Shown piece by piece: positions 240 to 60,300 of a DNA stretch of 64,000 nucleotides. The DNA is from a virus. The stretch spans positions 11,684-75,683 of IMG/VR virus record IMGVR_UViG_3300036795_000241; one strand, given 5' to 3'. The notes under the pieces are model-generated. The model was given only the letters and a program-made list of their open reading frames with translations, did not search any database and was not told where the DNA came from. Made by a program: the position numbers and the translations under genes. Position 1 is the stretch's first letter. The number at the start of each line of letters is the position of its first letter.

Positions 240-1124
240 TTAGGCCAACAGCGACTGCGCCTGAGTCCTCAAGGCGGTAGCCTTAGTCAACAACGCGGCC
301 TTCTGAGTCGTCAACGACTGGTACTGCGCCAAATTACTCTGCAGCGAGGCATTCGTCGCAGTAGCGCTTGTCGCCTTTTTCGCGGACGCACTGGAGGAGG
401 AAGCCGATTTCGCCGCCTTGGTCGTACCGGTCTTCGCTGACTTTGTCGCCGTACCGGTCTTCGACCCAGTTGACGTTCCCGATTTCGCCGCTGACGCCGT
501 TTTCGCGGTATTCGAGGTCTGCAGCGTTAGCGTTTGCTGGGTGATCAGTGCGCGAAGCGCGTTGATCTGCACTCCGAGCGCATTCGCCTGATCGGTAAGC
601 TTGTTCGCGCGGTTCATCAACGATGCAGACTTAGCCTTCGCCTGCGGTGTCGGACCGGCGGGCTTTTGCTGCGGGTTCTTCGGATTCGTTGCGCCCGAAC
701 CCTGGTTCCCGGCCGACGTAAACTGACCGCCGGACGAATGGTACGGATTCGCCGCGAACTCCCGGAGCATTAGCCGGTCCACGACATTCGTATGCTCCTG
801 CGCACTTTGTGCGTGTGCGCGAGCTTCCTTGTCCTTCAGCGACGCCAACGCCTTCAATGCCGCCGCGCGTACTTCGGGATGCACGTTTCCACCGCCACGC
901 GCCCATCGGCGAATCGAGCCCCACGTAATTGCCGAAGCCTCCGCAACCGACTTACCGTTACGAATCAGCGCATTGCGAACGTTCTGGAAGTACGGCGGGA
1001 ACTGCATCCCCTTCACGTCCCACAGTCCCGGACCGCCAGGCTTCCCGATTGGCGCCGGCGTAACCGACAACGCTCCGGTCTTCGCGCTGAGCTCGACCAT
1101 CTGCTCGGCAATGGTACCGCTCAT
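240..1124 (-). CDS. Head-associated protein with basic Ala/Lys/Thr-rich low-complexity C-terminus
   Basis: 294 aa ORF with AAGGAG RBS; NPYH..GQFTS motif common in head-morphogenesis proteins; position in head module. Confidence 0.6.
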   Translation of the reverse strand: MSGTIAEQMVELSAKTGALSVTPAPIGKPGGPGLWDVKGMQFPPYFQNVRNALIRNGKSVAEASAITWGSIRRWARGGGNVHPEVRAAALKALASLKDKEARAHAQSAQEHTNVVDRLMLREFAANPYHSSGGQFTSAGNQGSGATNPKNPQQKPAGPTPQAKAKSASLMNRANKLTDQANALGVQINALRALITQQTLTLQTSNTAKTASAAKSGTSTGSKTGTATKSAKTGTTKAAKSASSSSASAKKATSATATNASLQSNLAQYQSLTTQKAALLTKATALRTQAQSLLA

Positions 1125-1132
1125 TCGTCTCC

Positions 1133-1930
1133 TTAGTATCCTTTCGGGCCCTGGTGCGCACTCTTGTAGACACTGATGAGCTCGGCGATGGTCAGCGAAC
1201 TACGGTATCCGTTACGTCGCGCCCACGCGCGAACTTCCTCTTCGTCCGGCTCCGACTGCGGCTTACGAATCTGTAGGTTTGCGCCTTCCGTCCGAACGGG
1301 AAAGAAGCGACCGCGATAGTCGATAACGACTTCCTTTTCGGTCGTTGACGCTACCTTCGCTTTAACCCATCCCGCATCGCTTAGGTAACTCTCAACCGTA
1401 TCGCCGACTTTATATCCCGCGGAATTCGGTTCGTCAGCTTGCTGCGAAGCTTCATCCGCGACTTCGGCATTGGCTTCGCGGATGATCGCTTCGTCCTGCT
1501 CCTGCGTTACCGTTCCGCTGGTAATCCCGAAAAGGCGTTCGGCAGCATTCTGGTACGCTGACTCCCACCGTTCCGGCGACACCTTACCCGCTGCGTCAGC
1601 GTCCGGAGTACGCGTCGCGGTACCTAGCTTACGGCTTTCCCGTACCGCGCGTTCGGCTTTTAGCCGTTCGGGATGCCCCTGCGGTAGTTTAGCTCGCGCG
1701 TCACTGCGCTGCTGCAGCAAATCGGCATGCGGTGTCGTACCCGGGATTCCGACGAACTTCCACCCGTGTTCGTATCCGTGCGGACCGACAAACTCCTGCA
1801 CGTCGTATTCGCCACGGTTCTGCAGGTCGGTACCCGCCGTGTAGATGTGCGGAACGCCGTCGATCATCTCAATAACGGTGTCACCGGGTTCGATGTCTTC
1901 TTCATCGGTATCGGTCGGGTCTGAGGTCAT
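1133..1930 (-). CDS. Head-module protein with SH3/Tudor-like segment and C-terminal Lsr2-like domain
   Basis: YKVGDTVE..GWVKAKV segment; C-terminal VRAWARRNGY...ELISVYKSAH resembles the Lsr2 DNA-binding domain. Confidence 0.55.
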   Translation of the reverse strand: MTSDPTDTDEEDIEPGDTVIEMIDGVPHIYTAGTDLQNRGEYDVQEFVGPHGYEHGWKFVGIPGTTPHADLLQQRSDARAKLPQGHPERLKAERAVRESRKLGTATRTPDADAAGKVSPERWESAYQNAAERLFGITSGTVTQEQDEAIIREANAEVADEASQQADEPNSAGYKVGDTVESYLSDAGWVKAKVASTTEKEVVIDYRGRFFPVRTEGANLQIRKPQSEPDEEEVRAWARRNGYRSSLTIAELISVYKSAHQGPKGY

Positions 1931-3366
1931 TGGCGGTACCCCATCTTCTTCTGAGCCTGGCGGAGATTATCGTTCGTGTACGAATACGATCCGATCTGCT
2001 CCATTGCCGCGACGTGCTTCGAGGCGAATTGCGGGAAGGCGTACACGGTAATCGTATTCGTTTCCTGGTCGACAACCTGCACGATTAGCAGTGGCGCAAC
2101 GCCGGCCTGTCGTACGGCCGTGTACTTCCGAGCCACCTCATCCGCTTTGATTGCCGTCTTCTGGTTCTTCGCTTTCGCACTGAGCGTCTTTAGTTCGCCA
2201 CCGTACTTATGGTCGAGATGAAAGTCGAGAGGCGTATTCCGGGCACCGAGTCCCGTCTCGCCTTCGGCATGCGAGATAGCGATGTACGGTCCGCCGAATT
2301 TCTTGGCGAGCAGGTGCGCTCCGTGTGCCCGAAATAGCTCTTCGTATGTGTCGCCGATCGAGCTCTTGCTCATCGCTTCGCCGGTATCCGGGTCCACGAA
2401 GTTCGACTTCGTCTGACCGCCGCGCTTCCGTTTGTCGTCAGCTCGAGTAACGTAATTCGACTGTGAGCCAGCTAGTGGCTGCCACCCGTGCCTATAGTGG
2501 TACGCCGTACCGGGGATGTGCTCGTGATCCGGTGTCGCAGCTAGCTCAACGACTCGCCTACGCTGTCGTAGCTGACCAACGATACTAGCTAGCGCATACT
2601 CACGCACCCCCCTCCGCTGATTGGATGCTGCCAGTATAGCCGATTCTTCCGGTCCCGGCAACATGGGCGCACCCGCATGCGGCGGACCGGGTTGGCACCG
2701 GCAGTGCACGTGAACGACACCGGGATATCCGATATCCGGAGGCGCACTGGCGAGGAAGTTCTTTCCGTTCGCCTCACGACATTCCGGTGTCGTTCGATCG
2801 TCGTCATGCGAATACCATCCGAGAACGGTACCGTGCGTACTCGCCAGTGCATCGATTCGGTTTCCGGCTTCGGTACGACCGTAATCTGCTGCCACGTGCT
2901 GATTGAAGTAGCGATCCTCCGCGGACCGAATCTCCGCTATCGCCTCCTCCCGTGTCGTACCGTTCCGTGCGGCCTCGGCAAGCGCTTCGGCGGATCGCTT
3001 TGTCGCCGCATAGATATATGCCGAGCGACGGATGGTGTTTGTCGCCAGCATGCTCTTCTGCGCCGGACCGATTCCGATGTATCGTGGTTGCGGGAAGCGC
3101 TCCGCTTCGCTAAGTGCCAGCTTTAGTGCCGCTCGTCCGATCTCGTTGTTCGCCAGGCCCATCTTCGGCAAGAAGCGCTGCAGCTCAGCGAAGATAAGCA
3201 ATGGCGAAGCCGCCACGGCCAATTCCGCGGCGATACTTCCGATTAGTACGGCTGCTTCCGTACCGATTGCCGCCGCTTGGGTTTGCCGCTCTCTCCGCTT
3301 TGCCGCCTTATTCTGCGCCGGTGTCGGACGTTGCGGCTGTACCGTACTAGCCACGCTGCAGGTCAC
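1927..3366 (-). CDS. MuF/gp7-like minor head protein with C-terminal PD-(D/E)XK-like extension
   Basis: W....DDRTTPEC...PG.VH.HCRC MuF motif; follows the portal; C-terminal GD..E...PLD...ELKT. True start may be GTG 3354. Confidence 0.75.
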   Translation of the reverse strand: MTCSVASTVQPQRPTPAQNKAAKRRERQTQAAAIGTEAAVLIGSIAAELAVAASPLLIFAELQRFLPKMGLANNEIGRAALKLALSEAERFPQPRYIGIGPAQKSMLATNTIRRSAYIYAATKRSAEALAEAARNGTTREEAIAEIRSAEDRYFNQHVAADYGRTEAGNRIDALASTHGTVLGWYSHDDDRTTPECREANGKNFLASAPPDIGYPGVVHVHCRCQPGPPHAGAPMLPGPEESAILAASNQRRGVREYALASIVGQLRQRRRVVELAATPDHEHIPGTAYHYRHGWQPLAGSQSNYVTRADDKRKRGGQTKSNFVDPDTGEAMSKSSIGDTYEELFRAHGAHLLAKKFGGPYIAISHAEGETGLGARNTPLDFHLDHKYGGELKTLSAKAKNQKTAIKADEVARKYTAVRQAGVAPLLIVQVVDQETNTITVYAFPQFASKHVAAMEQIGSYSYTNDNLRQAQKKMGYRQ

Positions 3367-4942
3367 CTCGCATTGAGCCCTCTAGCTGCGATCCGCCACC
3401 TAGCGCTTCCGGGGTCACGCCCATCGCATCATTTGCTCCCGGTGGCTGACCGTTAACCTGTCCGAGGACGGTAAACGTTGCATCCAGTGCGCCAGCTAGC
3501 TCAGCCGCCGCCTGTCCCTCCGGAGTTGCGCCGGACGGGGAATCGAGCAACGCCTTCTCCGCGCGCACTTTCGCGCCATTCGTGATCATCTGCGCGACCT
3601 GGCCCATCGGCAAGTCGAATTTGGTCGCCACCTTAGTCGCCAGCATGTCGACAAACTGGTCGGGAATGCGCAGTGCCGGTGCCTGCACCATCGCCGTAAA
3701 CGTCGCAATCAACTGCGCGGCATCCGTATCACTAATCGGTTCCGCGATCAACTTCGGAATCGCCTTCGACTTACCGCGATTCAGTACGACAATCGGTGCG
3801 GATACGTCATGCGTGAATGACGTGCAAATCTCATCGATAACGCCTTGCCGGGACTGCTGGAAGAACTGCGTCTGGCTCTCGGACAACGCGTAAGAACCAC
3901 GGCCGAGCGCTGCGGCACTCGGGAGGTTCAAGAAGCCGGCGAGAACGCTACCGGTCTGGTAGTTGTCGAGGAAATTGATCGCGGCCGTGAATTGCGCCGC
4001 ACCCGATCCGGCCGCTTCGATAACGTCGAATAGCTTTCCGCCCTGCGGCGGACGAACGAAGCCACCTACGGCGGAAGATCGCATGGCTGCCAATGCGGCT
4101 GCGGCATCGTCCGCCTGATCCTGGTCGGAGCCGTACACCGCCAATTTCGGCAACGACTGGTTCTCGAGGAACTGGAACCAGAGGAACAGCAGCTTCTGCT
4201 TCTGCTTATAGCACCAGTACGCAATGTCCATATCCGAGATACCGGTAAGTGGCGCACGGTGCTGCCCGTGGATATAGACGTACGATCGTATCTTCGGGAT
4301 ATCGAGATAGCCGGTGAAGTCCTTACCGTACGCCTTTTCGAAGTTCTGCTTACCTTGTCCCGGACTCGAATAGAACCACCAGGCTCGCTGACGAAACCCG
4401 TTCATTCGTGCCGTGTGCTCGTCGCGTCGTACTTCGCACGTACTCGGAGGACGCCATGCGAGATGCTGTAGTCGTACGGTTTCGTCATCGTCAAGCCCCC
4501 ACTGCTTTTCGAAGAAGGCTTTCTTGTAAACGGAACCGCCGGATAGCTGACCGAGAATCAGCTGCATTCCCGGATCGAGACCGCCGGATTCAGCTGGCGT
4601 ATACAGCTGCTCTTCGACCAAATCGAGCTCGCCGGTATCGCCTTTCTGTCCCTCCAGTGAGAACTTCGTTCCGCGTATCGGAAGCGTGAGCACTTGTTCG
4701 ACCTGGCGTGCGGTACCGTCCCGCGACAGCATAGTGTCGATATCGCGAGCGCGCCATTCCCCGATCTCGAAGACGTCACCGCCGCTAAACGCGGAGAATA
4801 GCCGCGTATACATATCGAACGCAGTACCGATCTCACCGCCGAGAAGCTGCTTCCGATCCTTCTTCGACAGTTCCGGGAGGCTAACGCCACCGTGCTGGTC
4901 CAGCCGCACTACGTTCGATCGGCTTACCATTCGCTTTCCCAA
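3347..4942 (-). CDS. Portal protein (DUF935/Mu gp29-like)
   Basis: About 530 aa directly after TerL; GSYALSESQ motif typical of DUF935 portals. Likely start ATG 4930. Confidence 0.85.
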   Translation of the reverse strand: MGKRMVSRSNVVRLDQHGGVSLPELSKKDRKQLLGGEIGTAFDMYTRLFSAFSGGDVFEIGEWRARDIDTMLSRDGTARQVEQVLTLPIRGTKFSLEGQKGDTGELDLVEEQLYTPAESGGLDPGMQLILGQLSGGSVYKKAFFEKQWGLDDDETVRLQHLAWRPPSTCEVRRDEHTARMNGFRQRAWWFYSSPGQGKQNFEKAYGKDFTGYLDIPKIRSYVYIHGQHRAPLTGISDMDIAYWCYKQKQKLLFLWFQFLENQSLPKLAVYGSDQDQADDAAAALAAMRSSAVGGFVRPPQGGKLFDVIEAAGSGAAQFTAAINFLDNYQTGSVLAGFLNLPSAAALGRGSYALSESQTQFFQQSRQGVIDEICTSFTHDVSAPIVVLNRGKSKAIPKLIAEPISDTDAAQLIATFTAMVQAPALRIPDQFVDMLATKVATKFDLPMGQVAQMITNGAKVRAEKALLDSPSGATPEGQAAAELAGALDATFTVLGQVNGQPPGANDAMGVTPEALGGGSQLEGSMRGDLQRG

Positions 4943-6844: not shown

Positions 6845-6873
6845 TTGACAGCTACCGAAAACTCTGCTACACT
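6845..6873 (+). promoter_or_regulatory. Primary-sigma promoter
   Basis: TTGACA-N17-TACACT with extended TG. Confidence 0.8.
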
Positions 6874-6897
6874 GGTGCTGTGAGAGGAGGTCATCGT

Positions 6898-9153: not shown

Positions 9154-9182
9154 TTGACAGCCGCGGCAGTTGCTGCTAGACT
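9154..9182 (+). promoter_or_regulatory. Primary-sigma promoter
   Basis: TTGACA-N17-TAGACT. Confidence 0.8.
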
Positions 9183-9216
9183 GGTTGCTGTAGGGCAAGA
9201 TGTGAGAGGAGATGCA

Positions 9217-10245: not shown

Positions 10246-11172
10246 ATGGCTGATACCGTCAGCGGCCAGCTCAAGCGCCGTCAGGCCACTCGTCGGGCCA
10301 AGCCCGCCGCAGCGAAGGCCGAGCCCGACATCACCGAAGCCGCAGACACCGTGAAGGCGGAGCCCGAGGCCGCCACTCCGAAGCCCGCCGCGCCCAAGGG
10401 TCCCCGGCGCCGGAAGCCCGCCGCGGTCAAGGCGGCACCCGAGCCGGAGCCCGAGGTCGACGAGGAGGAGGACGAGGAGCCCGAAGAGGACGATGACGAG
10501 GGCACCGAGACCGAAGCGAAGGAGAAGGGCAAGCCCGGTCGCAAGCCGGTCGAGCGGACCCCCGAGGAGGAGGCCGAGCGCGCCCGCGTCAAGGAGGAGA
10601 AGAAGCAGGCCGCCTTCGCGAAGCTGCGTGAGCGGAACGTGGCCAAGCGCGCCGCCGCGGACAAGGCCCGCAAGGAGCTCGTGACCAAGCTTTCCGGCGA
10701 GCTGACCACCGGCCAGGAGAAGTACCTGATCCGCGCCAGCTACTACGGCGTCAAGTGCATCGTGCAGAAGGTCGAGGAGGTGCGGGGTCGCGTTCTCGTC
10801 ACCGTGCTCTGCGTGACCACGAAGACCGGTCAGCCACTGGAGGAGAGCGCGTTCTACACCCGCCGCGTTTCGCCGAAGTTCCTCCTGGACGAGAAGCCCA
10901 CCGAGGCGTACGAGCCCCGGCGCGGCGGAAAGCCGAAGCGGAAGGCGAAGAACCGCCGGGAGCGCGCCGCCAAGCGCACCGAGGCCGAGGCCGCCTCCGA
11001 TGTCGAACTCGACGAAGAGGCCGAGATCGACGAGGAGGACCTGGAGGACGAGGAGCTCGAGACCGAAGAGGCGACGGACGAGCTCGAGGACGACGCCGAC
11101 ACCGATGAGGACGAAGAGGAGGAGGACGAGGAAAGCGACGAGGAGGACGAGGAGGGCGACTCCTGGGGCTGA
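10246..11172 (+). CDS. Highly charged protein: Lys/Ala/Pro-rich N-terminus, central globular domain, long acidic tail ending DSWG
   Basis: Own promoter (10169), RBS, very GC3-rich codons and a downstream hairpin. Confidence 0.8.
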   Translation: MADTVSGQLKRRQATRRAKPAAAKAEPDITEAADTVKAEPEAATPKPAAPKGPRRRKPAAVKAAPEPEPEVDEEEDEEPEEDDDEGTETEAKEKGKPGRKPVERTPEEEAERARVKEEKKQAAFAKLRERNVAKRAAADKARKELVTKLSGELTTGQEKYLIRASYYGVKCIVQKVEEVRGRVLVTVLCVTTKTGQPLEESAFYTRRVSPKFLLDEKPTEAYEPRRGGKPKRKAKNRRERAAKRTEAEAASDVELDEEAEIDEEDLEDEELETEEATDELEDDADTDEDEEEEDEESDEEDEEGDSWG

Positions 11173-11274: not shown

Positions 11275-11751
11275 TTGCAGCTAAACCCGAATCATGCTCC
11301 TGTCGAAACGAAGGTAGTGGCGCAATCCGGGACGTCCATCGCCAGTGGGATTCTCGTGTGGTGCCTCGTAACGTTCGTCCCCGCATTCCACGCCGGCATT
11401 CCATCCGACCTGCAGCCGTTTGTCCCCGTTATCGCGGCATGGCTCGTCGGTACCGCATCCGGCTATTTCGCGTCGCATACGCCACGGCTTGACGAAGCGC
11501 TGCGTCAGGCGATGCAGGCACTGGGGACGGTGTCGACAAAGCTTTCCCCCGCAATCGTTGGCGAACTCCGGTCGTTTACGCCGGCGCCCGTTACCGTTAA
11601 CGTGCACACAAGTGGCGGGGATCCGGGTGTGGCCGTTACGCAAGCTGAGCAGCCGGCGCCAAAGTCCGAGGCACCGACCGTTACGCAGTCGTCAGGCGTA
11701 AAGGTGATCACGGACCCGTCAGCCGGAACGGGCTCGTGGTCATCCGGATGA
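11275..11751 (+). CDS. Two-TM membrane protein resembling actinophage holins
   Basis: VETKV..., two hydrophobic helices, GY.A.HTPR motif. Confidence 0.55.
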   Translation: MQLNPNHAPVETKVVAQSGTSIASGILVWCLVTFVPAFHAGIPSDLQPFVPVIAAWLVGTASGYFASHTPRLDEALRQAMQALGTVSTKLSPAIVGELRSFTPAPVTVNVHTSGGDPGVAVTQAEQPAPKSEAPTVTQSSGVKVITDPSAGTGSWSSG

Positions 11752-13079: not shown

Positions 13080-13548
13080 CAACAGTACTGGGCAGTATCG
13101 GTATTGCATTCTCGCTGTGGGTGCTTTTCCTCGTACTGCGATCAGCTAATACGCGTTGCGCGTGGTGCTTTGCGCCACTTTACCGTATTCGCCGATATCA
13201 AGGCTACTGCCACGAATGCGGCGAACGGATTTGCGGTGAAGGCGGGCTTTACCTGCAGAACGGTAGCTCGCCGTATAAGTTCCACGCTCGTAGCAGCAAC
13301 ACTGAACGAGTGCGGTGATGTGTCTTCGCCAGTGGGCACTTCTCGAAAGCCGGTTGCACGAGCTGCACTGTCAGGAGTGCGAACCGCATATCAAGCATTA
13401 CGATCCGACGTTCAATGCCGAATGGTACGCAATTCATCCCGAAAAGCCGGTAGTGCTTTACCGTTCCGATTTCCAGCGCTTCTTTCATCAATCGCCATAC
13501 GATTTTCCCCTTCTCGCCACTGTTGACAGTGCGGGTAATCTGGATTAG
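13073..13548 (+). CDS. Two small Cys-containing hypothetical genes (13073-13318, 13315-13548)
   Basis: Overlapping stop/start codons; CxxC motifs. Confidence 0.5.
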
Positions 13549-13551
13549 ACT
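13523..13551 (+). promoter_or_regulatory. Promoter for leaderless exonuclease mRNA
   Basis: TTGACA-N17-TAGACT, ATG 6 nt later. Confidence 0.8.
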
Positions 13552-13557
13552 GGAGCC

Positions 13558-14787
13558 ATGACCGAACAGCTCACGTTCCCTCCCCGCTGGCAGCAGAGGC
13601 CGCCCGCCGGGACCGGATCGCCACTTACCGCACCGTTTGAGGTGTCGGTAACCGAACTGAACACGTTTCAGCGATGCCGTCGCAACTGGGACGAGACATC
13701 GCCATCACGGAAATCGCTGCACCTCAAGGGCGTCCCATCCGTCGCATTGAATGTCGGCTCGGCGATGCACTACGCCGTAGCCGCGCAAACGCTCGGGCAG
13801 GATCCGGAGCAAGCGATCCGCGAGTTCTATTCCGCCTCACGAGCCAAGATCGAGTTCGACTATCGCAATCAAGTCGGTACCGGACTTTCCGACGAAGAGC
13901 TCGACTCACTCGATGCGCAGCGAATGATGTGTCTGCAGCTCATCCGCGCGTACTACGCACGCTACGGACTGAAGAACCCCGTGCGACCGTATCGGTCCAT
14001 CGCCTGCGAGGTCACGTTCCGCATTCCGCTCGATGAGTGGCTCGGCATCTATCTCATCGGGACGATCGACCAAGTGGTCGTTGACGAATCCGACTGCCCG
14101 ATCCCGGTCGAAACGAAGACCTACAGCCGGAAGCCGAACAAGACGGACTGGCGTTTCGCACACCAGCCGTACGGATATGCGGCCGCGCTGCAGTACCTCA
14201 CTGGGCAACGGGTCCCGTATTTCTTGTATAACGGAATCCGCAAGACCGGTCCCACGCAACCGAAAATCCTCAAGCGCGGCGGCGTATCGCAGCGCTGGAT
14301 CGATACGACCTACGAGGTCTATCGCGATGCCGTACGCCTCGAGCACGGCGGGAAGATTCCGAACAGCTATCTCGATATTCTGAACCGCTTCAAGGCGCGC
14401 GACAATTCGCCGGAGAATGCGTTCACGACACGCTTCCGGATGCCGGTGTCGCAGCACGCGATTGAGCTGTGGCTAGACCAAGCCGCCGCGATCGCCCGCG
14501 AAATGGCGTTCTCGCCGATCATCTACCCGAACTTCCCGTGGAACGGATGTCGCTTCTGTCGCACGCAGGATCTGTGTCACGCGCTGCAAGCCGGTGACGA
14601 CGCCCAGTACCAGTACCTCGTTAACGAGAACTACCGGATCGACACCACGCACACGCGGAAAGCGAAGCACATCGCGACCCGTAAGAACGTACGCAACGTG
14701 GAAGACCTCGCGGCATTTGCCCGCAACCAGGAACTGCTCCCGCCCGTTATCGAAGACTCGAACGCCGAAACACTGGAGGAGGACTAG
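13558..14787 (+). CDS. Cas4/RecB-like PD-(D/E)XK exonuclease
   Basis: N-terminal C, G...H, E..F, GTID, ETKT, Q..GY, C-terminal CxxC-x5-C (Fe-S type); apparently leaderless from promoter 13523. Confidence 0.85.
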   Translation: MTEQLTFPPRWQQRPPAGTGSPLTAPFEVSVTELNTFQRCRRNWDETSPSRKSLHLKGVPSVALNVGSAMHYAVAAQTLGQDPEQAIREFYSASRAKIEFDYRNQVGTGLSDEELDSLDAQRMMCLQLIRAYYARYGLKNPVRPYRSIACEVTFRIPLDEWLGIYLIGTIDQVVVDESDCPIPVETKTYSRKPNKTDWRFAHQPYGYAAALQYLTGQRVPYFLYNGIRKTGPTQPKILKRGGVSQRWIDTTYEVYRDAVRLEHGGKIPNSYLDILNRFKARDNSPENAFTTRFRMPVSQHAIELWLDQAAAIAREMAFSPIIYPNFPWNGCRFCRTQDLCHALQAGDDAQYQYLVNENYRIDTTHTRKAKHIATRKNVRNVEDLAAFARNQELLPPVIEDSNAETLEED

Positions 14788-19441: not shown

Positions 19442-19470
19442 TTGACATCCGCGAAGAACTCTGCTAGACT
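19442..19470 (+). promoter_or_regulatory. Primary-sigma promoter
   Basis: TTGACA-N17-TAGACT. Confidence 0.8.
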
Positions 19471-19500
19471 GTAGCTGGATGGGGAGAGAGGAGGTACCCG

Positions 19501-26863: not shown

Positions 26864-26892
26864 TTGACACTCCGGTAAGAAGGGTATATACT
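26864..26892 (+). promoter_or_regulatory. Promoter abutting the origin iterons
   Basis: TTGACA-N17-TATACT, ATG 26899. Confidence 0.8.
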
Positions 26893-26898
26893 GTCGCT

Positions 26899-27616
26899 AT
26901 GGAGAGCAAAAGTATCGCGGATGGCGAAAAGCTAATCGACCTGATGTTCGGTGAGTTCGATGAGGTAGCGATCGCTATCGTATCGCACGGAAGTGCGAAT
27001 CCAAGCTGCAACGGCTTCGTGGTGCACGCACAGAGTGCTAGCGAAGCTAAGCATATCCTACGAAATGCGAATCGCTATCGTTACTGTCCACGATGCGGGC
27101 AGGACAATCACTTCCACGGAACCGTTAGCTTGCAGTGGAACTTCGAAGTACGCACCTCGAAATGACAATGGCGAACGGTGGTGCAAGGTGCCCGAATCGA
27201 CCGCACAGTTCGTCAAGCTAGCCATTAACCGCCACACCCCCGTTGCTAGACCGAAGCAACGACGTTTTCGTAGCTTACCCGACCACCGAAAGCGTAATCG
27301 CGACCAGCTTGACAAACCGGAGCATCTCTGCTATACTACTGGATGAGAGGAGGTTGACGAGATGGCCCCAGTAAAACCGATTCAGATCAAAGATATCGAC
27401 GAAACGTCCAAGCGGGTGCGCGCGGAACTGCGTACCTGCATCGATGCGCATATCCGGGGCGATAACGTGTCGGCTTACGCAGCTGCGGAACGCGCTCAGC
27501 ACATTTGCTTCGAGCTCAAAGAGCTCTTCATGCAGCCGCTGAGTATCCGAGGAAGGAAACCGAGTCCGAGTGACGATGAAATGGCGCAAAGCCAGCTACA
27601 GCAACCCGAGCGGTAA
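26899..27616 (+). CDS. Two hypothetical genes (26899-27165 leaderless; 27362-27616)
   Basis: Each follows a consensus promoter. Confidence 0.55.
27309..27337 (+). promoter_or_regulatory. Primary-sigma promoter
   Basis: TTGACA-N17-TATACT. Confidence 0.8.
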
Positions 27617-28801: not shown

Positions 28802-28830
28802 TTGACAGTGTGCCAGGTGGCGGGTAAACT
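28802..28830 (+). promoter_or_regulatory. Promoter upstream of the repeat triplet
   Basis: TTGACA-N17-TAAACT. Confidence 0.7.
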
Positions 28831-28951
28831 TGCTCCTGTGGACGGCAACCAGAAGCGTCGGAAGCGCTTTGACATCGGGGCAACTGGCGCTCGCACTTCC
28901 CCCCCAGGCGAGTGGCCGCCTTCGGGTCCGGTTTCCGTTCATGCACTATCG

Positions 28952-29119
28952 GCTCGGGGAGCTACTACCTAGTACGCGATCGTCCGGCGGAACCTTCTTC
29001 GCCCCCGTGAGAGGGAACCCTGGACATCGTGAAAGGGTAGCTCCCCGAGCTGACTTTATGCCTGCCGCTAAGCACGAGGGACGGACCGCGACGTGGGACA
29101 AGACAGCTCGGGGAGCTAC
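28952..29119 (+). repeat. Direct/inverted/direct 14-16 bp repeat triplet
   Basis: GCTCGGGGAGCTAC at 28952 and 29106; complement GTAGCTCCCCGAGCTG at 29037. Confidence 0.85.
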
Positions 29120-37887: not shown

Positions 37888-38088
37888 CATTCCCAGTGTC
37901 CGGCCAGACGAAAACCTATCGCCGCGGGAGCTTCTCGAAAGGGCGGTCTTCGAATCGCTCGGTCGCGCCTCGGTGTGCTGGGAGGACTTCCCGTCCGGGG
38001 TGTTCCTCGCGGAGCAGGCGAAGGCGGTTGGCGAAAACTTGCTCGAATGCATTGACGCGTTCGTGCAGCACAAACTTCAGGGTAGCGG

Positions 38089-38118
38089 TTGACAGTTTGC
38101 GACTGGCTATGCTATACT
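38089..38118 (+). promoter_or_regulatory. ssb promoter
   Basis: TTGACA-N18-TATACT. Confidence 0.75.
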
Positions 38119-38176
38119 GGAGGTTCAATTAGAGGCCGATCGCGCCTCAAAGCGATCACGTAGAAAGGACAGGCAG

Positions 38177-38581
38177 ATGCCCGTTCAGGTAGACCTCACC
38201 GGCGTTTCCGTTGAAGGCCCCACTCCGCTGGAGCCGGACACGTATGACGCAGTTATCACGAAGGCGGACATTCATCCGTCCAAGTCCTCGCAGAACGACA
38301 CGCTGTACCTCGAGATAGCGGTCGGTGAGGAAGGGCGCAATCTCCGCTGGAACTGCTCCGTGGCGGGGGACTCGCTGTGGCGCTTCAAGAAGCTGCTGGT
38401 GCGACTCGGATTCGAAATCCCGGAAGGGCCCTTCGAGTTCGACGAGAAGGAACTGATCGGCGCCGAATGCCAGGTCAAGGTCAGCCTCGAGCCGCACTAC
38501 CAGGACCCGTCCCGCAAGACGAACAAGATCACCGCCGTTCTCGGCCCGGACGGCGAAGAAGGTGAGGGTTCCTGGGGCTAG
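38177..38581 (+). CDS. Phage ssDNA-binding protein (DUF669-like)
   Basis: P.EPDTYDAVI..A...SKS, ELIG.EC.V.V, acidic tail; own promoter, GC3-rich codons. Confidence 0.75.
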   Translation: MPVQVDLTGVSVEGPTPLEPDTYDAVITKADIHPSKSSQNDTLYLEIAVGEEGRNLRWNCSVAGDSLWRFKKLLVRLGFEIPEGPFEFDEKELIGAECQVKVSLEPHYQDPSRKTNKITAVLGPDGEEGEGSWG

Positions 38582-38584
38582 CTT

Positions 38585-38660
38585 AGCTTCCCGCCGAAAG
38601 GCGGGGAGGCTGGGGGCGGGCCGGCACCTCCTCTCACAAGTTGCGAGTCGGTCCGCCTCC
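38585..38660 (+). ncRNA. Two hairpins after ssb; the second has an anti-RBS loop (candidate sRNA or terminator)
   Basis: GAAA-tetraloop hairpin 38585-38611; 14 bp stem 38612-25/38647-60 with loop ACCTCCTCTCACAAGTTGCGA. Confidence 0.55.
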
Positions 38661-38685
38661 TTCCTAATGGCGTAAAGGAGTACCG

Positions 38686-39231
38686 TTGCTGTATGTCGGA
38701 ATAGACCCGGGGTCGATTTACACTGGGATCGCCGTATACAACGGTACCGAATTCACGCTATGGTGCGAGACAAGTGATCCAACGGCTATCTTCGATTTTA
38801 TCGATGATCTCCGCGCAGTTGAACCGATACACGTAGTGCTCGAAATAATGACGGGTGGCGGCGTCCGCGACAAGCACATTGTCCGCACCATCGAAGTCGT
38901 TGGCTACGTGTATCACGGGTGCCGGGAACGCGATGTCCCGATAACCCGAGTCCCGCAGCAGTTGCGGCTATCCGCGGTGTCGCAATTGCCGGACGCGATA
39001 AAGGGAAAGGACGAACGGTCAGCAGCGGCACACGCAATGGCGTTTGCCGAACGGACGGAGAGAAAGAATGCTCGAGCAAGCCAGCATCGAGGTGCGCCAC
39101 CACTTCGAGGCCGCACACCGGCTGTTCCTGACGTCGGGAAAGTGCGAAAATATCCACGGACACAGCTGGAAAGTCGCACTAGAGTTGACCGGTCTGGTCG
39201 ACTCCGCCAACGGAATGGTCGGCGCACTTGA
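38686..39231 (+). CDS. RuvC-like Holliday junction resolvase
   Basis: VGIDPG..TG, VVLE, D...A.AH; 3' end overlaps queD. Confidence 0.75.
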   Translation: MLYVGIDPGSIYTGIAVYNGTEFTLWCETSDPTAIFDFIDDLRAVEPIHVVLEIMTGGGVRDKHIVRTIEVVGYVYHGCRERDVPITRVPQQLRLSAVSQLPDAIKGKDERSAAAHAMAFAERTERKNARASQHRGAPPLRGRTPAVPDVGKVRKYPRTQLESRTRVDRSGRLRQRNGRRT

Positions 39232-39568
39232 CTTCAGCGACGTAAAGGGTTCGTTCCGTACGTATCTCGATAACGAGTTCGACCACCGATTGCTACTGCA
39301 CCGCGAAGACCCATTCGCCGGTCCACTGATCCACAGCTTCGAACACGATCTGGTCTCCGCAAAGCCGGACACGGGAAAGCTCGATTCACTCCCCGGTGTC
39401 TCGTGCTTCGATTACGACCCGACCACCGAGAACGTCGCACGGACGATCGGCGTCTGGGCCAGTGACGAGTTCGGGATGAATGCCGCACTTAGCGCGGTCC
39501 GCGTAACGGTTCACGAGACGGACGTAAATTCCGCGACGTGGATGACGGCACTTACAGGAGAAATGTAG
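39068..39568 (+). CDS. queD: 6-carboxytetrahydropterin synthase
   Basis: FEAAHRL, C.NIHGHSW, DF..VK, FDH, PTTEN, VHET. Confidence 0.92.
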   Translation: MLEQASIEVRHHFEAAHRLFLTSGKCENIHGHSWKVALELTGLVDSANGMVGALDFSDVKGSFRTYLDNEFDHRLLLHREDPFAGPLIHSFEHDLVSAKPDTGKLDSLPGVSCFDYDPTTENVARTIGVWASDEFGMNAALSAVRVTVHETDVNSATWMTALTGEM

Positions 39569-43097: not shown

Positions 43098-43718
43098 CCG
43101 AACCGCCGCCGATGAGCCAAGAGTCCGCTCAGCGAGTACAGGAGGTAATGAAAGAGGTCATTCAAACGAACGACGCAATGCCCGGGAAGTACGTTATCTT
43201 CGTTACCGCGGATGTCGTACCGGACGACCCGCAGGCGATTGTCGAATGGGAATGGTACTGGCGTCCGATAAATCGACATGCAGGCGGCGGTTAATGCAAG
43301 CGGAACTGGTCCCGGTAATCGTACGCGTTCAATTCACGTGCGGGAATCACCTGACGCCACTCAAGCCGAATCTTATGCGACTTGAGTACCGATGTCCAAT
43401 GCGCGGTTGCGACACACTGCTACGAAAGGAAGAACTGCACCGCTGGAACTTGCACTTTACGAACGCCTTTCCCGAGGTAATCGTCACTGGACGGAAGGAG
43501 ACGTTATGCCGCTCGGAATCTGCCAGCCGTGTCAGGACGGAGCGACCGAGATGCTACTGGGCAATACCGAATTCGCTACCCGCCTGCACGAGCAGTGCCC
43601 CGGCGGTACGTGGTGTCTATGCCACCATAGCGTAAGTGGCTCCGCGATGTCGGAGCAGGATCAGCTACGACGCAACTTGACAATCCGGGATACCCCGGCT
43701 ATACTTGAGGAACCATGA
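43094..43718 (+). CDS. Three short hypothetical genes
   Basis: Contiguous ORFs, some Cys-containing. Confidence 0.45.
43677..43705 (+). promoter_or_regulatory. Promoter for the NDT-like/polymerase genes (CGGC subclass)
   Basis: TTGACA-N17-TATACT. Confidence 0.75.
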
Positions 43719-47212: not shown

Positions 47213-47796
47213 TCGACACAGTTGAACTCGAGATCCCGGTTCATCTGGCCCCGGCAATAGCGATTCTCGTTAAGACCGCCGTGCAGAAAGGAAGCGACTA
47301 CGCACGTGACGAGTGGAGCAGCAACTTCTCCGATACCGCCGACCACTTCGGCATCCCGCGTTACGAATCGTGCGACTTCAACGAGATTCAGAAGCTCGCA
47401 CGGCTGAAGAGCCTTCGTACCGGCCGAAAGGTGCTCAACGAGTCCGTCGAAGACACGTACCGGGACAAGGCGCTTTACGCCATTCTCGCATACGTGCTGT
47501 ATCTCGAAGAAGTGGCAGCTAGGCGCGGGGCCGAGAACGAAGAGAAGATGAGTGGCTTCCTCTATACCGAGGCGCCAAGCGAGTCCGTACTGGACGGGGA
47601 GCTCCCGTCCCGCGCGCAGGTGTCCACGCATATGCCGATCGAAGGTGACGGGGTCGACGCCTGGCTTCAGCGGATTCGTGGCGACTTCGATACCGATTCA
47701 CCGCAGTACGCGCTGCTTACCGAGATGATGGCGAAGTATCAGCGGCGTGCGGAGGAGGGTAAGTCCCTTTCGGAACCGGTTATATATCCGACTTGA
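47209..47796 (+). CDS. Nucleotide-modification-associated domain 1 (DUF1599-like) protein
   Basis: K..DY....NF, K..RL, NESV.DT..D.A.YAIL. Confidence 0.7.
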   Translation: MIDTVELEIPVHLAPAIAILVKTAVQKGSDYARDEWSSNFSDTADHFGIPRYESCDFNEIQKLARLKSLRTGRKVLNESVEDTYRDKALYAILAYVLYLEEVAARRGAENEEKMSGFLYTEAPSESVLDGELPSRAQVSTHMPIEGDGVDAWLQRIRGDFDTDSPQYALLTEMMAKYQRRAEEGKSLSEPVIYPT

Positions 47797-47822
47797 CAGG
47801 ACCCGCGCCGGTGTGCTAGACT
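47793..47822 (+). promoter_or_regulatory. Primary-sigma promoter
   Basis: TTGACA-N18-TAGACT. Confidence 0.8.
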
Positions 47823-47839
47823 GGATGCTGTGAGAGGAG

Positions 47840-48568
47840 GTGGTCAAGGTGGCCGCAGATAACGCACTTGACCGCATTCAGAAGCTCCTGGCGAAGGCAG
47901 AGAGCCCCGCAGTTACGGAGCAAGAGGCCGAGTCCTTTCGGGACAAGGCCTTTGAGCTGGCTGCGAAGTACCGGATTGACCACGCTGAGCTTAAGGCGAA
48001 GGGCCAGGCGCCCTCGGAGAAGATCGTGAACCGGCGAATGCACGTGTCCCGCCCGTTTACGCAGATGATGCGCCTGGCCCTTATCGTGTTCGAGTCGAAC
48101 GATTGTTCGCTCATCCGCATCAGCGGGACCAAGGACACGATACACGCATTCGGATACGAGAACGACATGGCGAAGGCCGAATTGCTGTTCACCTCGTTGC
48201 TGGTGCAGGGTGCCCGGTGGTGCGCACAGGACTACCGCGAGTACCGGTACGAAAGCGAGGAGCGGCGTTCGACATTCCGGCGAGGGTGGTGGACCGGATA
48301 TGCGAACAAAGTGTACAAGCGACTGCAGGCAATTCAGCAGCGTGCGGAGAGCGAATCCGCCACACCCGGGACGGCAATCGTTCTGCGGGACCGCAAGCAG
48401 GACACGAATACCGCGATGGTCAACCACTACTCCGGAGCGATCAGCCGCGGTCGGCGGACTAAGGGCGTGTCCAGTCACGGTGGATACCGAAGGGGATCGG
48501 AAGCCGGTGACCGGGCCGACCTGGGTGGGACGCGGATGGGGCCCTCCGCCCGCGGTGAGCTGGGCTGA
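47840..48568 (+). CDS. DUF2786 domain protein
   Basis: LDRIQKLLAKAE......EAE....KA.EL..KY.ID; own promoter. Confidence 0.85.
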   Translation: MVKVAADNALDRIQKLLAKAESPAVTEQEAESFRDKAFELAAKYRIDHAELKAKGQAPSEKIVNRRMHVSRPFTQMMRLALIVFESNDCSLIRISGTKDTIHAFGYENDMAKAELLFTSLLVQGARWCAQDYREYRYESEERRSTFRRGWWTGYANKVYKRLQAIQQRAESESATPGTAIVLRDRKQDTNTAMVNHYSGAISRGRRTKGVSSHGGYRRGSEAGDRADLGGTRMGPSARGELG

Positions 48569-48576
48569 TACCCCGC

Positions 48577-48605
48577 TTGACAGTCGCGGGAGGATCTGCT
48601 ATACT
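48577..48605 (+). promoter_or_regulatory. Primary-sigma promoter
   Basis: TTGACA-N17-TATACT. Confidence 0.8.
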
Positions 48606-48657
48606 GGGTCCTGTGAGAGGAGCAGGGTCAGCCAGGGTGGCAGGACCCAACCGCGAC

Positions 48658-57326: not shown

Positions 57327-60300
57327 TTACGCAGTTGTCAGGTCGCCCTGAGCATACGAGAACGAATCGGAACGTGCTAGCGTTAGCACTAGCTGATTAG
57401 TTAGGGTCGAATAGTTGTACGACGTTATCCGGTGCCAGATCGCCTGACCGCGCATCCAGCCGCTCGTAAGCTGTACTAGAATGTCGTCTCCAGCGGCAAA
57501 GCTACCGAATGGTGCATGCGGGTGATCGGTTACCTGAATGCTCTGTACGACTGACATTCCGATGCGTGCCATCAGGTCCGCGCGGGCCAGTGGCGCAAGC
57601 TTCTCGGCTGACGATTCCGCCGCATTGGTATATGCGTACGAACGGTACAGGCGGGAAGTGTCGACTAGTCCGCTGTTCCAGTGCGTTTGCGTACTTCCGC
57701 TTCCGGCGCCGTATCCGATTACCGCATTCTGGTACTGCGTACCGTCCTGATTTAGCGTCGGTAGAACGGTGATATTCTCGCCCTCGACGAACCGCAATCC
57801 GGACTGTCGTGTACCTAGTCGTGGATAGCCGAGGTTTAGCTGGTGTACGACATCCGTCATATCGCTGTTCCAGCTATGCGTTTCCGACATATCGAATGGC
57901 GTGACGGTGGACAAGTTCGTCAGTTCCTGTCCGATATCCGTACCGTTCCACCAGTCCAGCTGATACGGAATCGGCTCTTGCGCCGTCCACGTCCAGTTCG
58001 GCTGATTCGAGTACGAAACCGTTATCGTATTATTCGGCTGCAGCGTAAACGCACCCGTACGGCGTCCGGTATCGACTCCGTTAATCAGCACCTTAGTAAC
58101 CGTACCGCCGGTAATGCTAATAGCTACCGCGAACGTCGTCGTATTCTTTACCGCTTTACCCGAAGCGGGGAAGTTTGCCGGCGTTACATCCGTTGCCTGC
58201 AGTACGCTACCGATGCGCACCGGTGACGACGTATTGGCTAGCTGCAAGCCGAGATCCGCATTCGGCTGACTCTGCAGGTAGGCCCAGAGAAAACGGATCA
58301 CGGCTAGCGGATCAATGTCGATCTGCGAATAGCTCGCACCGTTGTAGACCTGTCCGCTTGGATAGCCGCGGAATCCGGTAGCCTGCAGATTCCACTGGGG
58401 ACCCGAGAAGTCGGACGAGGTAACGATCCCGCCCCACTGAATTGCGCCGTCAAGCTCAGCGTAAATGAACGTCGACCACGGATCGATAACCGGTAGCCCG
58501 TCTGGACCAACGAGACCGAAATACTGCGGATTAATCGTCCCCTGCAACGAATTCGTCTTCAGATCCCACGTCAGCGTATCCGAGGTTAGCGGAATCCCGG
58601 TGCGATCTAGCCATTGTTTCGTTAGCGCCCGCTGCGCAATATACTTCCACCGGCCAGTGACCCGCGACCTTACTGCGAGAGCAAGTCTAGGTAGCGGGTG
58701 GAACTTTGTCGCGGTCGCACCGAATGACGGTACGGTGGCGGATAGCGTTGCGGCAACGCTCCAGTTAGTGGACGCTATCCCGGATACGGATAGTGATGGC
58801 GTAATACCGCTAAGGCTAGCCGCGACAAACCGATTAACCGTCGAAGTGGCAGCCAGTGAGGCCGCGGGTGCCGAAAGTGTAGCTACCGCACCTTTCGTAG
58901 TATCGGAAGCGGTGGCGGATAGTGAAGCTGTCGATGCAGTGAGCGTTGCCGCTACGTTTTCGGTATCATGTGCGGTAGCCGTAAACGACGGCGTCGGTGC
59001 AGTTAGTGTCGCCGCGGAAGGATCGGTTACCGCTCCACTAGCCGTTTCAATTGCGAAGCTGGTAATGTTCCAGTATGCGGTCGCGGAGGACGACGTAAAG
59101 GTAGCTCCGGCTCGGCTACCGTTAGCCCAGCTGGCACCCTGGAACTTCGGGCTACCCGACGGCTTGAAGTTGTCGATTGTCGTCCACGGTGGCGAAACGG
59201 GATTCGTAACCGTATACGTCGTTGATCCGCTGTCATCGCCCATCTGCGCGATAACCATCGTTAGGTCGGTCGGCTGGGTACCCGATAGCGCGGTCGACGT
59301 AAAGCCTGCCCCGGTAGCGGAAGCTTTATCGTGTCTAGCACCCGTGCGAATCGGCGTACTAGTGTTCGCCTGCGTAATCCGCTTTATCGAACAGCAATAG
59401 TCACTGCTAGTTGTCCACGTAAACGTGTAGCTAGATGGCTCGCTCCCCCCGGCGACCTTGTACCAGGTACAGCCGGCGGTATCGTTACTATCGGTCCACG
59501 GAGCAATGACCTGCGCCCATCCCGAGGGAGGCGTGAATCCCGTGGAACCCGAACCCGTATTCAATGCCGCAATCAGTAGGTCGCCGGACACGGTACCGGT
59601 CGGGAGTGCGCAGGCAGCCGATGTACCAGAACCAGTTACCGTCGACTCGTTCGCATATGACGCAACCGCGGCGGCATGTAGTGCGACAACTACAGCTGAC
59701 GTTCGGCATCCCGAACCCGCAGTACCGCTGTACGTGAATACACTGGCGGAGGTCGCCACCTGATAGCCAACTGCGAAACGCTGGTAGTATCCGGTGGACG
59801 TTTGCTGCCCGTCCGTTTCTTCGATCCACGGAGCACCCGGGGTTCCTTGCGCAAACGAGGTAGTCGTTCCGCCCAGGTTCCAGCTACCGGCACACGCCGA
59901 AATTAGGTCACCGACAGCTGCGGCTGCACTTGTCGACACCGACCAGGAGGCCGAGTTGGCGGATTGTCGCAACGGGGTACAGGTTACGCCAACCAATGCC
60001 GCGAACGTTGTCGCCAGTCCGGACCATTCTTCGACGACACCGATTATCGTCTGAACGCCGGTGGAGCCGGTACCGGCGATCTTTACCGTAGTCTGACCCG
60101 CAGTGGCATTCGGGTCGACCCACTTACCGACGTCCGAGTTTGCGGTACCCAGTGACTCGATCGCGTTCGCCCAGTTATCCGCTGTCTGGCTACTGGACGA
60201 TCCGGACGTAAGCGCAACGGCTGTCGGCGAGGCCGTATCGCCGAGCATGTGAAAGCTGGCGATCAGACAGTTACCCGTACCGGTCGGCGCCGGAAGTGTG

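Follow-up and report, generated by a model that had tools for sequence, protein, structure and literature searches.

A hairpin between the ssb-like and ruvC genes of an uncultured soil phage presents a loop complementary to a repeated promoter leader: a candidate anti-leader RNA element

The window analysed here, a stretch of 64,000 nt, comprises bases 11684-75683 of a 75.7-kb IMG/VR phage genome that is apparently complete, has a G+C content of 59% and belongs to an uncultured phage from a soil metagenome. A megablast search of GenBank phages found no close relative, and the matches of the phage DNA polymerase all had an identity of at most 27%. Between 6.8 and 50 kb of the window all genes lie on the + strand, which also carries the 22 members of a family of strong sigma-70-type promoters, hereafter class-1 (cTTGACA-N17/18-TGCTAkACT). 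A consensus promoter of this class (38089-38118, +; TTGACA-18-TATACT with TG) drives a gene of 134 aa (38177-38581, +; DUF669 / PHROG 378-3724) and, via read-through, the hairpin that follows it. The original prediction named this gene ssb; the position of the hairpin behind it stands, but the label is weak (PHROG 378 at E 1.5e-4, PHROG 3724; DUF669 in 12 of 19 relatives), and we call the gene ssb-like. A gap of 104 nt, which contains the hairpin, separates it from a gene for a RuvC-like resolvase (38686-39231, +), downstream of which lies a queD-queE-folE-TGT-gatQueC block. The RuvC-like ORF has 181 aa, and its Arg-rich tail overlaps the start of queD (39044-39568) in another frame; RuvC of relatives has 127-132 aa, except in the G002-type, where it has 169 aa and a similar tail.

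Two hairpins on the + strand occupy the gap. A small one, with 6 bp and a GAAA loop (38590-38605), lies just past the stop codon of the ssb-like gene, while the main one (38612-38660) has a 14-bp stem with three G-U pairs, formed by the 5' arm GGGGGCGGGCCGGC (38612-38625) and the 3' arm GUCGGUCCGCCUCC (38647-38660), and a loop of 21 nt, ACCUCCUCUCACAAGUUGCGA. Its fold reaches -33.9 kcal/mol on the + strand (z -3.6; equalled by none of 200 shuffles) and -25.7 kcal/mol (z -1.8) on the - strand, so that the + strand preference originally read from the G-U pairs holds. The stretch CACCUCCUCUCACA (38625-38638, +), complementary to the leaders discussed below, includes C38625, which closes the stem, and otherwise lies in the loop; when it is folded together with the end of the ssb-like gene (3' side), its predicted mean P(unpaired) is about 0.7. 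The tail after the stem, UUCCUAAUGG, lacks the U-run after a G+C-rich stem that marks Rho-independent terminators, and the terminator scan made no call. In an Rfam cmscan of positions 38000-39200, the sole match at E up to 10 was a spurious one to a lncRNA inside a coding region; there was no recognisable sRNA family and no match to the C4 covariance model.

No class-1 promoter was found between 38089 and 43677, so that expression of ruvC and the que genes requires at least partial read-through of the hairpin; the ruvC SD (AAAGGAG, 38676-38682) follows it after 16 nt. The hairpin had been taken for a 3'-UTR-derived RNA of the preceding gene, but the need for read-through makes it an internal element and not a clean 3' end. 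Searches guided by protein sequence added five lineages in which ssb, hairpin and ruvC are arranged as in the window, namely the G001-type (seven identical contigs), L029, the G002/G003-type, G004 (a complete 73.7-kb genome) and G006 (72.5 kb). L029 came from a metagenome scan whose other matches were distant loci, and G006 from viral-contig scans with ssb and RuvC profiles, whose other matches were distant and came without the intergenic region; a genome-contig scan yielded no further relatives. About 45 further homologues were collected (P0002-P0049; P0002 is 79% identical), and the comparison of loops and leaders covers six lineages including the window. The hairpins of the five further lineages are strong (z -4 to -6.4) and end 10-25 nt before the ruvC RBS, while their stem sequences differ; the more distant relatives have no ssb/ruvC gap at all. 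The presence of a hairpin in all six lineages despite differing stems identifies it as a conserved structural element in its own right. That of G004 continues into a U-run (CUUUUUCG) like a canonical terminator, whereas that of the window does not.

The complement of the anti-leader stretch, TGTGAGAGGAGGTG, occurs exactly, over 14 nt, at 47829-47842, at the end of a promoter-leader region (47793-47842, +) that precedes a DUF2786/DUF7168 gene. Shorter contiguous matches to the loop lie in five other promoter-leader regions of the + strand: 13 nt at 6879-6891 before a 67-aa gene (phrog_1933; region 6845-6891), 11 nt at 9201-9211 before a 213-aa gene (phrog_636; 9154-9211), at 27344-27354 before an 84-aa gene (27309-27354) and at 48612-48622 before an 87-aa gene (48577-48622), and 10 nt at 19486-19495 before the gene for a 63-aa hydrophobic protein (19442-19495). 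All these matches had been listed in the original prediction and were recovered as described. It had also placed the exact complement at both the SD and the start of the DUF2786 gene; the site is indeed in the leader, but the start codon is more likely GTG 47849 than GTG 47840. The placement of the sites in class-1 leaders was likewise borne out, as all six lie just downstream of consensus promoters of the class; four of them begin 5-7 nt past the -10, which is the predicted +1, and those at 9201 and 19486 begin 19 and 15 nt past the -10, respectively. With the match beginning at the predicted +1, the four mRNAs would start with (U)GUGAGAGGAGG and carry the SD at about +5 to +10. The leader motif of the window is TGTGAGAGGAGG. 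By computation, then, the loop is single-stranded and has 10-14 nt complementary to about six leaders, from the predicted +1 through the SD, that belong to one promoter-leader cassette.

The class-1 promoters are not uniform in what follows them. At 13523-13560, 26864-26901 and 43677-43717, and also at 10681-10718 of G003, an ATG lies 6-9 nt past the -10, and these promoters would yield leaderless or nearly leaderless mRNAs, a typical habit of actinobacterial hosts; other class-1 promoters have long leaders of different sequence. Since other promoters of the class give leaderless or differently led messages, an RNA directed against the leader would discriminate within one promoter class. About eight of the 22 promoters (9154, 10169, 13523, 16874, 17816, 21993 and 48577, plus weaker ones) have their -35 hexamer flanked by the arms of an inverted repeat, 5-8 bp long and variable in sequence, which may serve as an operator or may belong to a terminator of the preceding unit that overlaps the promoter. 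A further peculiarity is found at 28802-29060, where a consensus promoter with no plausible ORF start behind it drives a strongly folded RNA of about 220 nt in two domains (-113 kcal/mol, z -5.5) with a UUCCCCCCCA loop. Within the second domain a stretch resembles the leader, GUGAGAGGGAA, and the hairpin loop could pair with it.

Of the 14 nt of the anti-leader stretch, 11 resemble the universal 16S tail, and part of the match is expected for any loop mimicking the anti-SD. The complementarity nonetheless exceeds this expectation. With up to two mismatches allowed, the complement motif has five matches against 0.28 expected, and its sole minus-strand match is the hairpin loop, which is also the one antisense copy in the whole 75.7-kb genome. 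A genome-wide duplex scan with the 21-nt loop placed class-1 promoter leaders at ranks 1, 2, 3, 5, 11 and 14. Against the 22 leaders the real loop forms seven duplexes at -20 kcal/mol or below, while 1000 shuffles of the loop gave a mean of 0.3 such duplexes and 1000 shuffles with CCUCC kept fixed a mean of 0.5; seven was reached by none in either set. Shuffled controls had been among the proposed checks. Since the leaders form a repeated family, the seven duplexes do not count separately; what counts is that a single antisense copy of the 12-14-nt family consensus falls inside a 21-nt loop, for which our own arithmetic gives an expectation of about 0.002 genome-wide; a 14-mer match from a 21-nt loop in 75.7 kb is likewise expected about 0.002 times. 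The pairing between loop and leaders is specific, above chance and above a generic anti-SD, and the claim that the match extends beyond the latter is supported by the CCUCC-keeping shuffles. An accessible stretch, contiguous matches of 10-14 nt to initiation regions and an excess over shuffles are what is looked for in the seed of a trans-acting base-pairing sRNA, and all were found here.

The G001-type phages have about 60% protein identity to the window phage (61% for ssb), and their intergenic region is alignable with that of the window only in the stem. Their homologous hairpin, with a stem of 15 bp and a loop of 36 nt that includes a small inner hairpin, presents UCCUUCCCUCAC, predicted to be mostly unpaired. 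Its exact 12-nt complement, GTGAGGGAAGGA, occurs once in the 23.4-kb contig, 6 nt past the -10, at the predicted +1, of the only consensus promoter of that contig (cTTGACT-17-TAGACT); by our own arithmetic, about 2e-5 such landings of the 12-mer on a single promoter leader are expected. A 10-nt copy of the leader, TGAGGGAAGG, precedes another start codon. Just upstream of this second copy, at 11585-11610 of G001 (L009), lies a palindrome, GCATATGATATGC, flanked by GGG/CCC, which may be an operator or a small hairpin. The three best duplexes of the G001 loop in its contig all fall at translation starts, with the promoter leader ranked first.

When the two phages are aligned on the common CUCAC/GUGAG, two differences between the loops are accompanied by two matching differences between the leaders (GAGAGGAGG vs GAGGGAAGG). 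The energies of the cognate duplexes span -20 to -26 kcal/mol (window) and -26 to -34.5 kcal/mol (G001), whereas the window loop on G001 leaders attains only -12 to -15 kcal/mol. Comparable pairs of loop and leader number only two, differing by two compensatory positions, and the two loops are homologous and hence not fully independent. The loop of L029 is G001-like (CUUCCUUCCCUC), on a contig of only 2.2 kb that is too short for a comparison of leaders. In the G002/3, G004 and G006 lineages the hairpin is kept with no leader-complementary loop, and the orthologues of the window target genes lack the promoter-leader cassette. The gaps of G004 and G006 (150-190 nt), used as background, gave scattered antisense matches of 10-12 nt, none of them at leaders, and the best duplexes of the G006 loop (ACCUUCCU...) are not at gene starts. 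Judging from the sequences, loop motif and leader are either both present (two lineages) or both absent (three). The covariation of loop and target suggested as a further check amounts to two compensatory changes in G001, and the motif is absent from three of the six lineages that keep the hairpin.

Those three lineages, which keep the hairpin without an anti-leader, imply a function of the stem that does not need the loop motif, and it could be argued that this function is the whole story, i.e., that the hairpin is only an intercistronic attenuator or mRNA stabiliser setting the ssb:ruvC ratio, with an unselected loop whose match is the by-product of a CU-rich, 16S-tail-like sequence meeting an extended SD. 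A strong hairpin stands directly before the ruvC RBS in six of six lineages whatever the loop sequence, that of G004 carries a U-run as a canonical terminator would, four of the six loops are merely CU-rich, and ruvC and the que genes, without a promoter of their own of the class, need graded read-through. Left unexplained by this argument, however, are the matches of 14/14 and 12/12 nt, which in both phages continue beyond the SD as far as the predicted +1, the matching changes of loop and leader between window and G001, and the failure of the CCUCC-keeping shuffles, together with the small expectations calculated above for the 14-mers in 75.7 kb and for the G001 12-mer at a promoter leader. 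We consider it unlikely that the loop is an unselected bystander.

The loop might otherwise be selected for an action in cis. Part of the 3' arm recurs in its CU tract, with two copies of UCCUUCCC in G001 and two of CCUCCU in the window, and during transcription this tract could be the first to pair with the purine-rich 5' arm. The long stem would then close later, which would adjust termination or the accessibility of the ruvC RBS. A stretch of 8 nt shared by loop and 3' arm in G001 is in both places complementary to GGGAAGGA of the 5' arm, and in the window GGAGG at 38606-38610 is able to pair with the loop or with the 3' arm. The loops are nevertheless complementary to the leaders over 14 nt (window) and 12 nt (G001), against 5 and 8 nt for the 5' arm, the predicted ensemble keeps the loop open, and a switch of this kind gives no reason for the GUGA/CAC extension; we hold it to be improbable.

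A third explanation would move the signal from RNA to DNA. Several promoters have the motif across their start region, and a phage or host protein that bound TGTGAGAGGAGG at the promoter +1 as an operator could use the inverted intergenic copy as an extra site, in an arrangement akin to the asymmetric stoperators of mycobacteriophage L5; the inverted repeats around the -35 in about 8 of 22 promoters suggest that this class is under protein control. A DNA site, however, needs neither the apical position in a conserved hairpin whose G-U pairs fold on one strand only nor a boundary at the transcription start, and the inverted copy is single and away from promoters. In both phages the complementarity begins at the predicted +1, as RNA pairing predicts and a DNA site does not, and we give the operator very little credence.

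We therefore return to a reading at the RNA level, in which the ssb-like/ruvC transcript carries the hairpin as an intercistronic RNA element whose apical loop is a tailor-made anti-leader. We regard the chances of this reading as about even, and are equally divided on whether the pairing of loop and leader as RNA, blocking ribosome binding, is the function that was selected; the more specific story of a processed sRNA shutting off early genes appears less likely than RNA-level pairing as such. Carried by the abundant ssb-like mRNA, or by a nuclease-resistant fragment of it, the loop would pair in trans with the leaders, mask their SD and compete against the 3' tail of 16S rRNA, with lower translation and probably lower stability of the target messages as the outcome. 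Messages of this promoter class that have no leader, or a different one, would be spared. The stem, for its part, most likely also acts as an attenuator of read-through or as a nuclease barrier stabilising the upstream mRNA, and would in this way keep ssb high and ruvC low.

The 3' tail of 16S rRNA in many Gram-positive bacteria is CACCUCCUUUCU. Both loops, as we see them, look like this tail with U-to-C changes that presumably turn G.U pairs with the cognate leader into G-C, and both carry a CAC(A) extension that we take to pair with the first bases of the mRNA, beyond the end of the 16S. On account of these changes and of the extension the loop should bind the leader more tightly than the ribosome does. 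The target being a free 5' end, more than one helical turn could form even with a closed loop. The loop of G001 has about 6 nt in common with 16S versus 12 nt with its leader, which argues that the conserved property is complementarity to the leader and not likeness to 16S.

The original prediction went further and had the early mRNAs silenced once the replication genes are on. This timing finds no support, as the promoter of the ssb-like gene is of the same class as those of the targets and a temporal shut-off could arise only via the accumulation of a stable fragment. The observation itself, a loop antisense to the leaders of several genes, is thus confirmed and its interpretation partly supported. 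Other roles of the hairpin were tried and rejected: the loop is not a remnant of a minus-strand promoter, since no -10/-35 lies upstream of the inverted copy and the 5-nt spacer of the cassettes is missing; pairing in cis with the ruvC SD would involve only 5 bp that are not conserved among relatives; and for self-regulation of ssb its own leader, at -7 to -11 kcal/mol, is not a target.

The logic of a phage reducing a set of its own messages via their SD is known from T4, whose endoribonuclease RegB, a protein nuclease cleaving GGAG, turns down the phage's own early messages at the SD (PMC3014915); the agent proposed for the window would instead be an RNA loop masking the SD. Bacteria have 3'UTR-derived and C/CU-rich-loop base-pairing sRNAs, such as CpxQ, RsaE/RoxS and 6C sRNA. 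Non-coding RNAs derived from 3' UTRs have also been described in phage PAK_P3 (PMC10914365). With these RNAs the candidate has in common a pyrimidine-rich loop that a stable stem displays where a coding region ends, and SD regions as predicted targets. The putative RNA of the window differs from them in that it has no terminator U-tail, would act on the phage's own messages and has a seed reaching the very 5' end of the mRNA.

As for repeated sites near promoters, the stoperators of mycobacteriophage L5 are asymmetric DNA sites bound by the repressor and have one orientation relative to transcription, whereas the intergenic copy of the window is oriented opposite to the promoter copies. The closest known architecture appears to be that of the Cluster K mycobacteriophages, described in a study that also mentions the L5 stoperators: a 13-nt asymmetric motif containing the SD (SAS) is repeated ahead of 13-19 non-structural genes, in many cases directly behind a SigA-like promoter (then ESAS), and the K1 phages have a single SAS copy in the opposite orientation (PMC3203893). 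The role of SAS is still described as unknown (PMC11373665, PMC12699233). In Mycobacterium phage Adephagia (JF704105) we find 16 SAS sites on the + strand and one reverse copy (record 58682-58694), which sits in the unannotated gap between gp92 and gp93. There the transcribed strand forms a hairpin of 13+6 bp (19 bp; L052:38662-38716, record 58661-58715), and the reverse copy lies in its apical loop of 10 nt, CCUCCUAUCC. The region of this hairpin is conserved in 137 Cluster K records, mostly unannotated, and six Anayavirus phages with varying stems have an identical CCUCCUAUCC loop. The parallel is imperfect within Cluster K, as Ekdilam keeps the SAS consensus with a loop changed to CCUCCUUCCCC; the loops of Keshu and SirPhilip are unrelated to CCUCCUAUCC. 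Window and K1 phages thus resemble each other in a repeated SD-containing leader motif near promoters with one reverse copy in an apical loop, and the inverted repeats around the -35 in the window are reminiscent of those that the ESAS promoters have of their own. The motifs, however, are different (GGGATAGGAGCCC in Cluster K, TGTGAGAGGAGG in the window, which is therefore not a member of the 13-bp SAS family), the phages are unrelated (DNA polymerase matches at most 27% identical), and the gap that contains the Cluster K hairpin is non-coding and close to the right end, not behind an ssb-like gene.

These resemblances raise the possibility, which we advance tentatively and with more doubt than confidence, that phages equipped with promoter-leader cassettes each encode one anti-leader hairpin. 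Its loop would mimic the 16S tail in an improved form that reaches the first mRNA bases; it would win against ribosomes on one class of messages of the phage itself and co-evolve with the leader, and the window phage, the G001-type and K1, with its orphan reverse SAS, would be independent examples. If so, an anti-leader hairpin would give the unexplained SAS motifs a partner RNA, and a one-to-many RNA acting on a common leader would be a compact means of reprogramming the translation of a gene class, of which the favouring of leaderless or differently led messages would be an example. The role of SAS has been open since 2011, and as Cluster K has M. smegmatis genetics and published RNA-seq, such a partner is testable there.

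To our knowledge, the known phage antisense RNAs (c4, sar, OOP) each control one neighbouring target. The functionally closest known system appears to be c4 of phages P1 and P7 (Rfam C4), an antisense RNA whose loops pair with the ribosome-binding region of a phage mRNA and block its translation, and in which loop and target differ in a matching way between the related phages, the basis of P1/P7 heteroimmunity (PMC12197685). The candidate of the window would similarly be a phage-encoded loop directed against ribosome-binding regions, with matched differences of loop and target in a relative. It differs from c4 in its place between replication genes, in having no sequence or structure match in Rfam, and in its reach: c4 hits one operon (icd-ant) from its own transcript, while the window element would address about six dispersed transcripts. 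The candidate would be a variant of the phage antisense riboregulators, a known kind, in which one RNA addresses many leaders.
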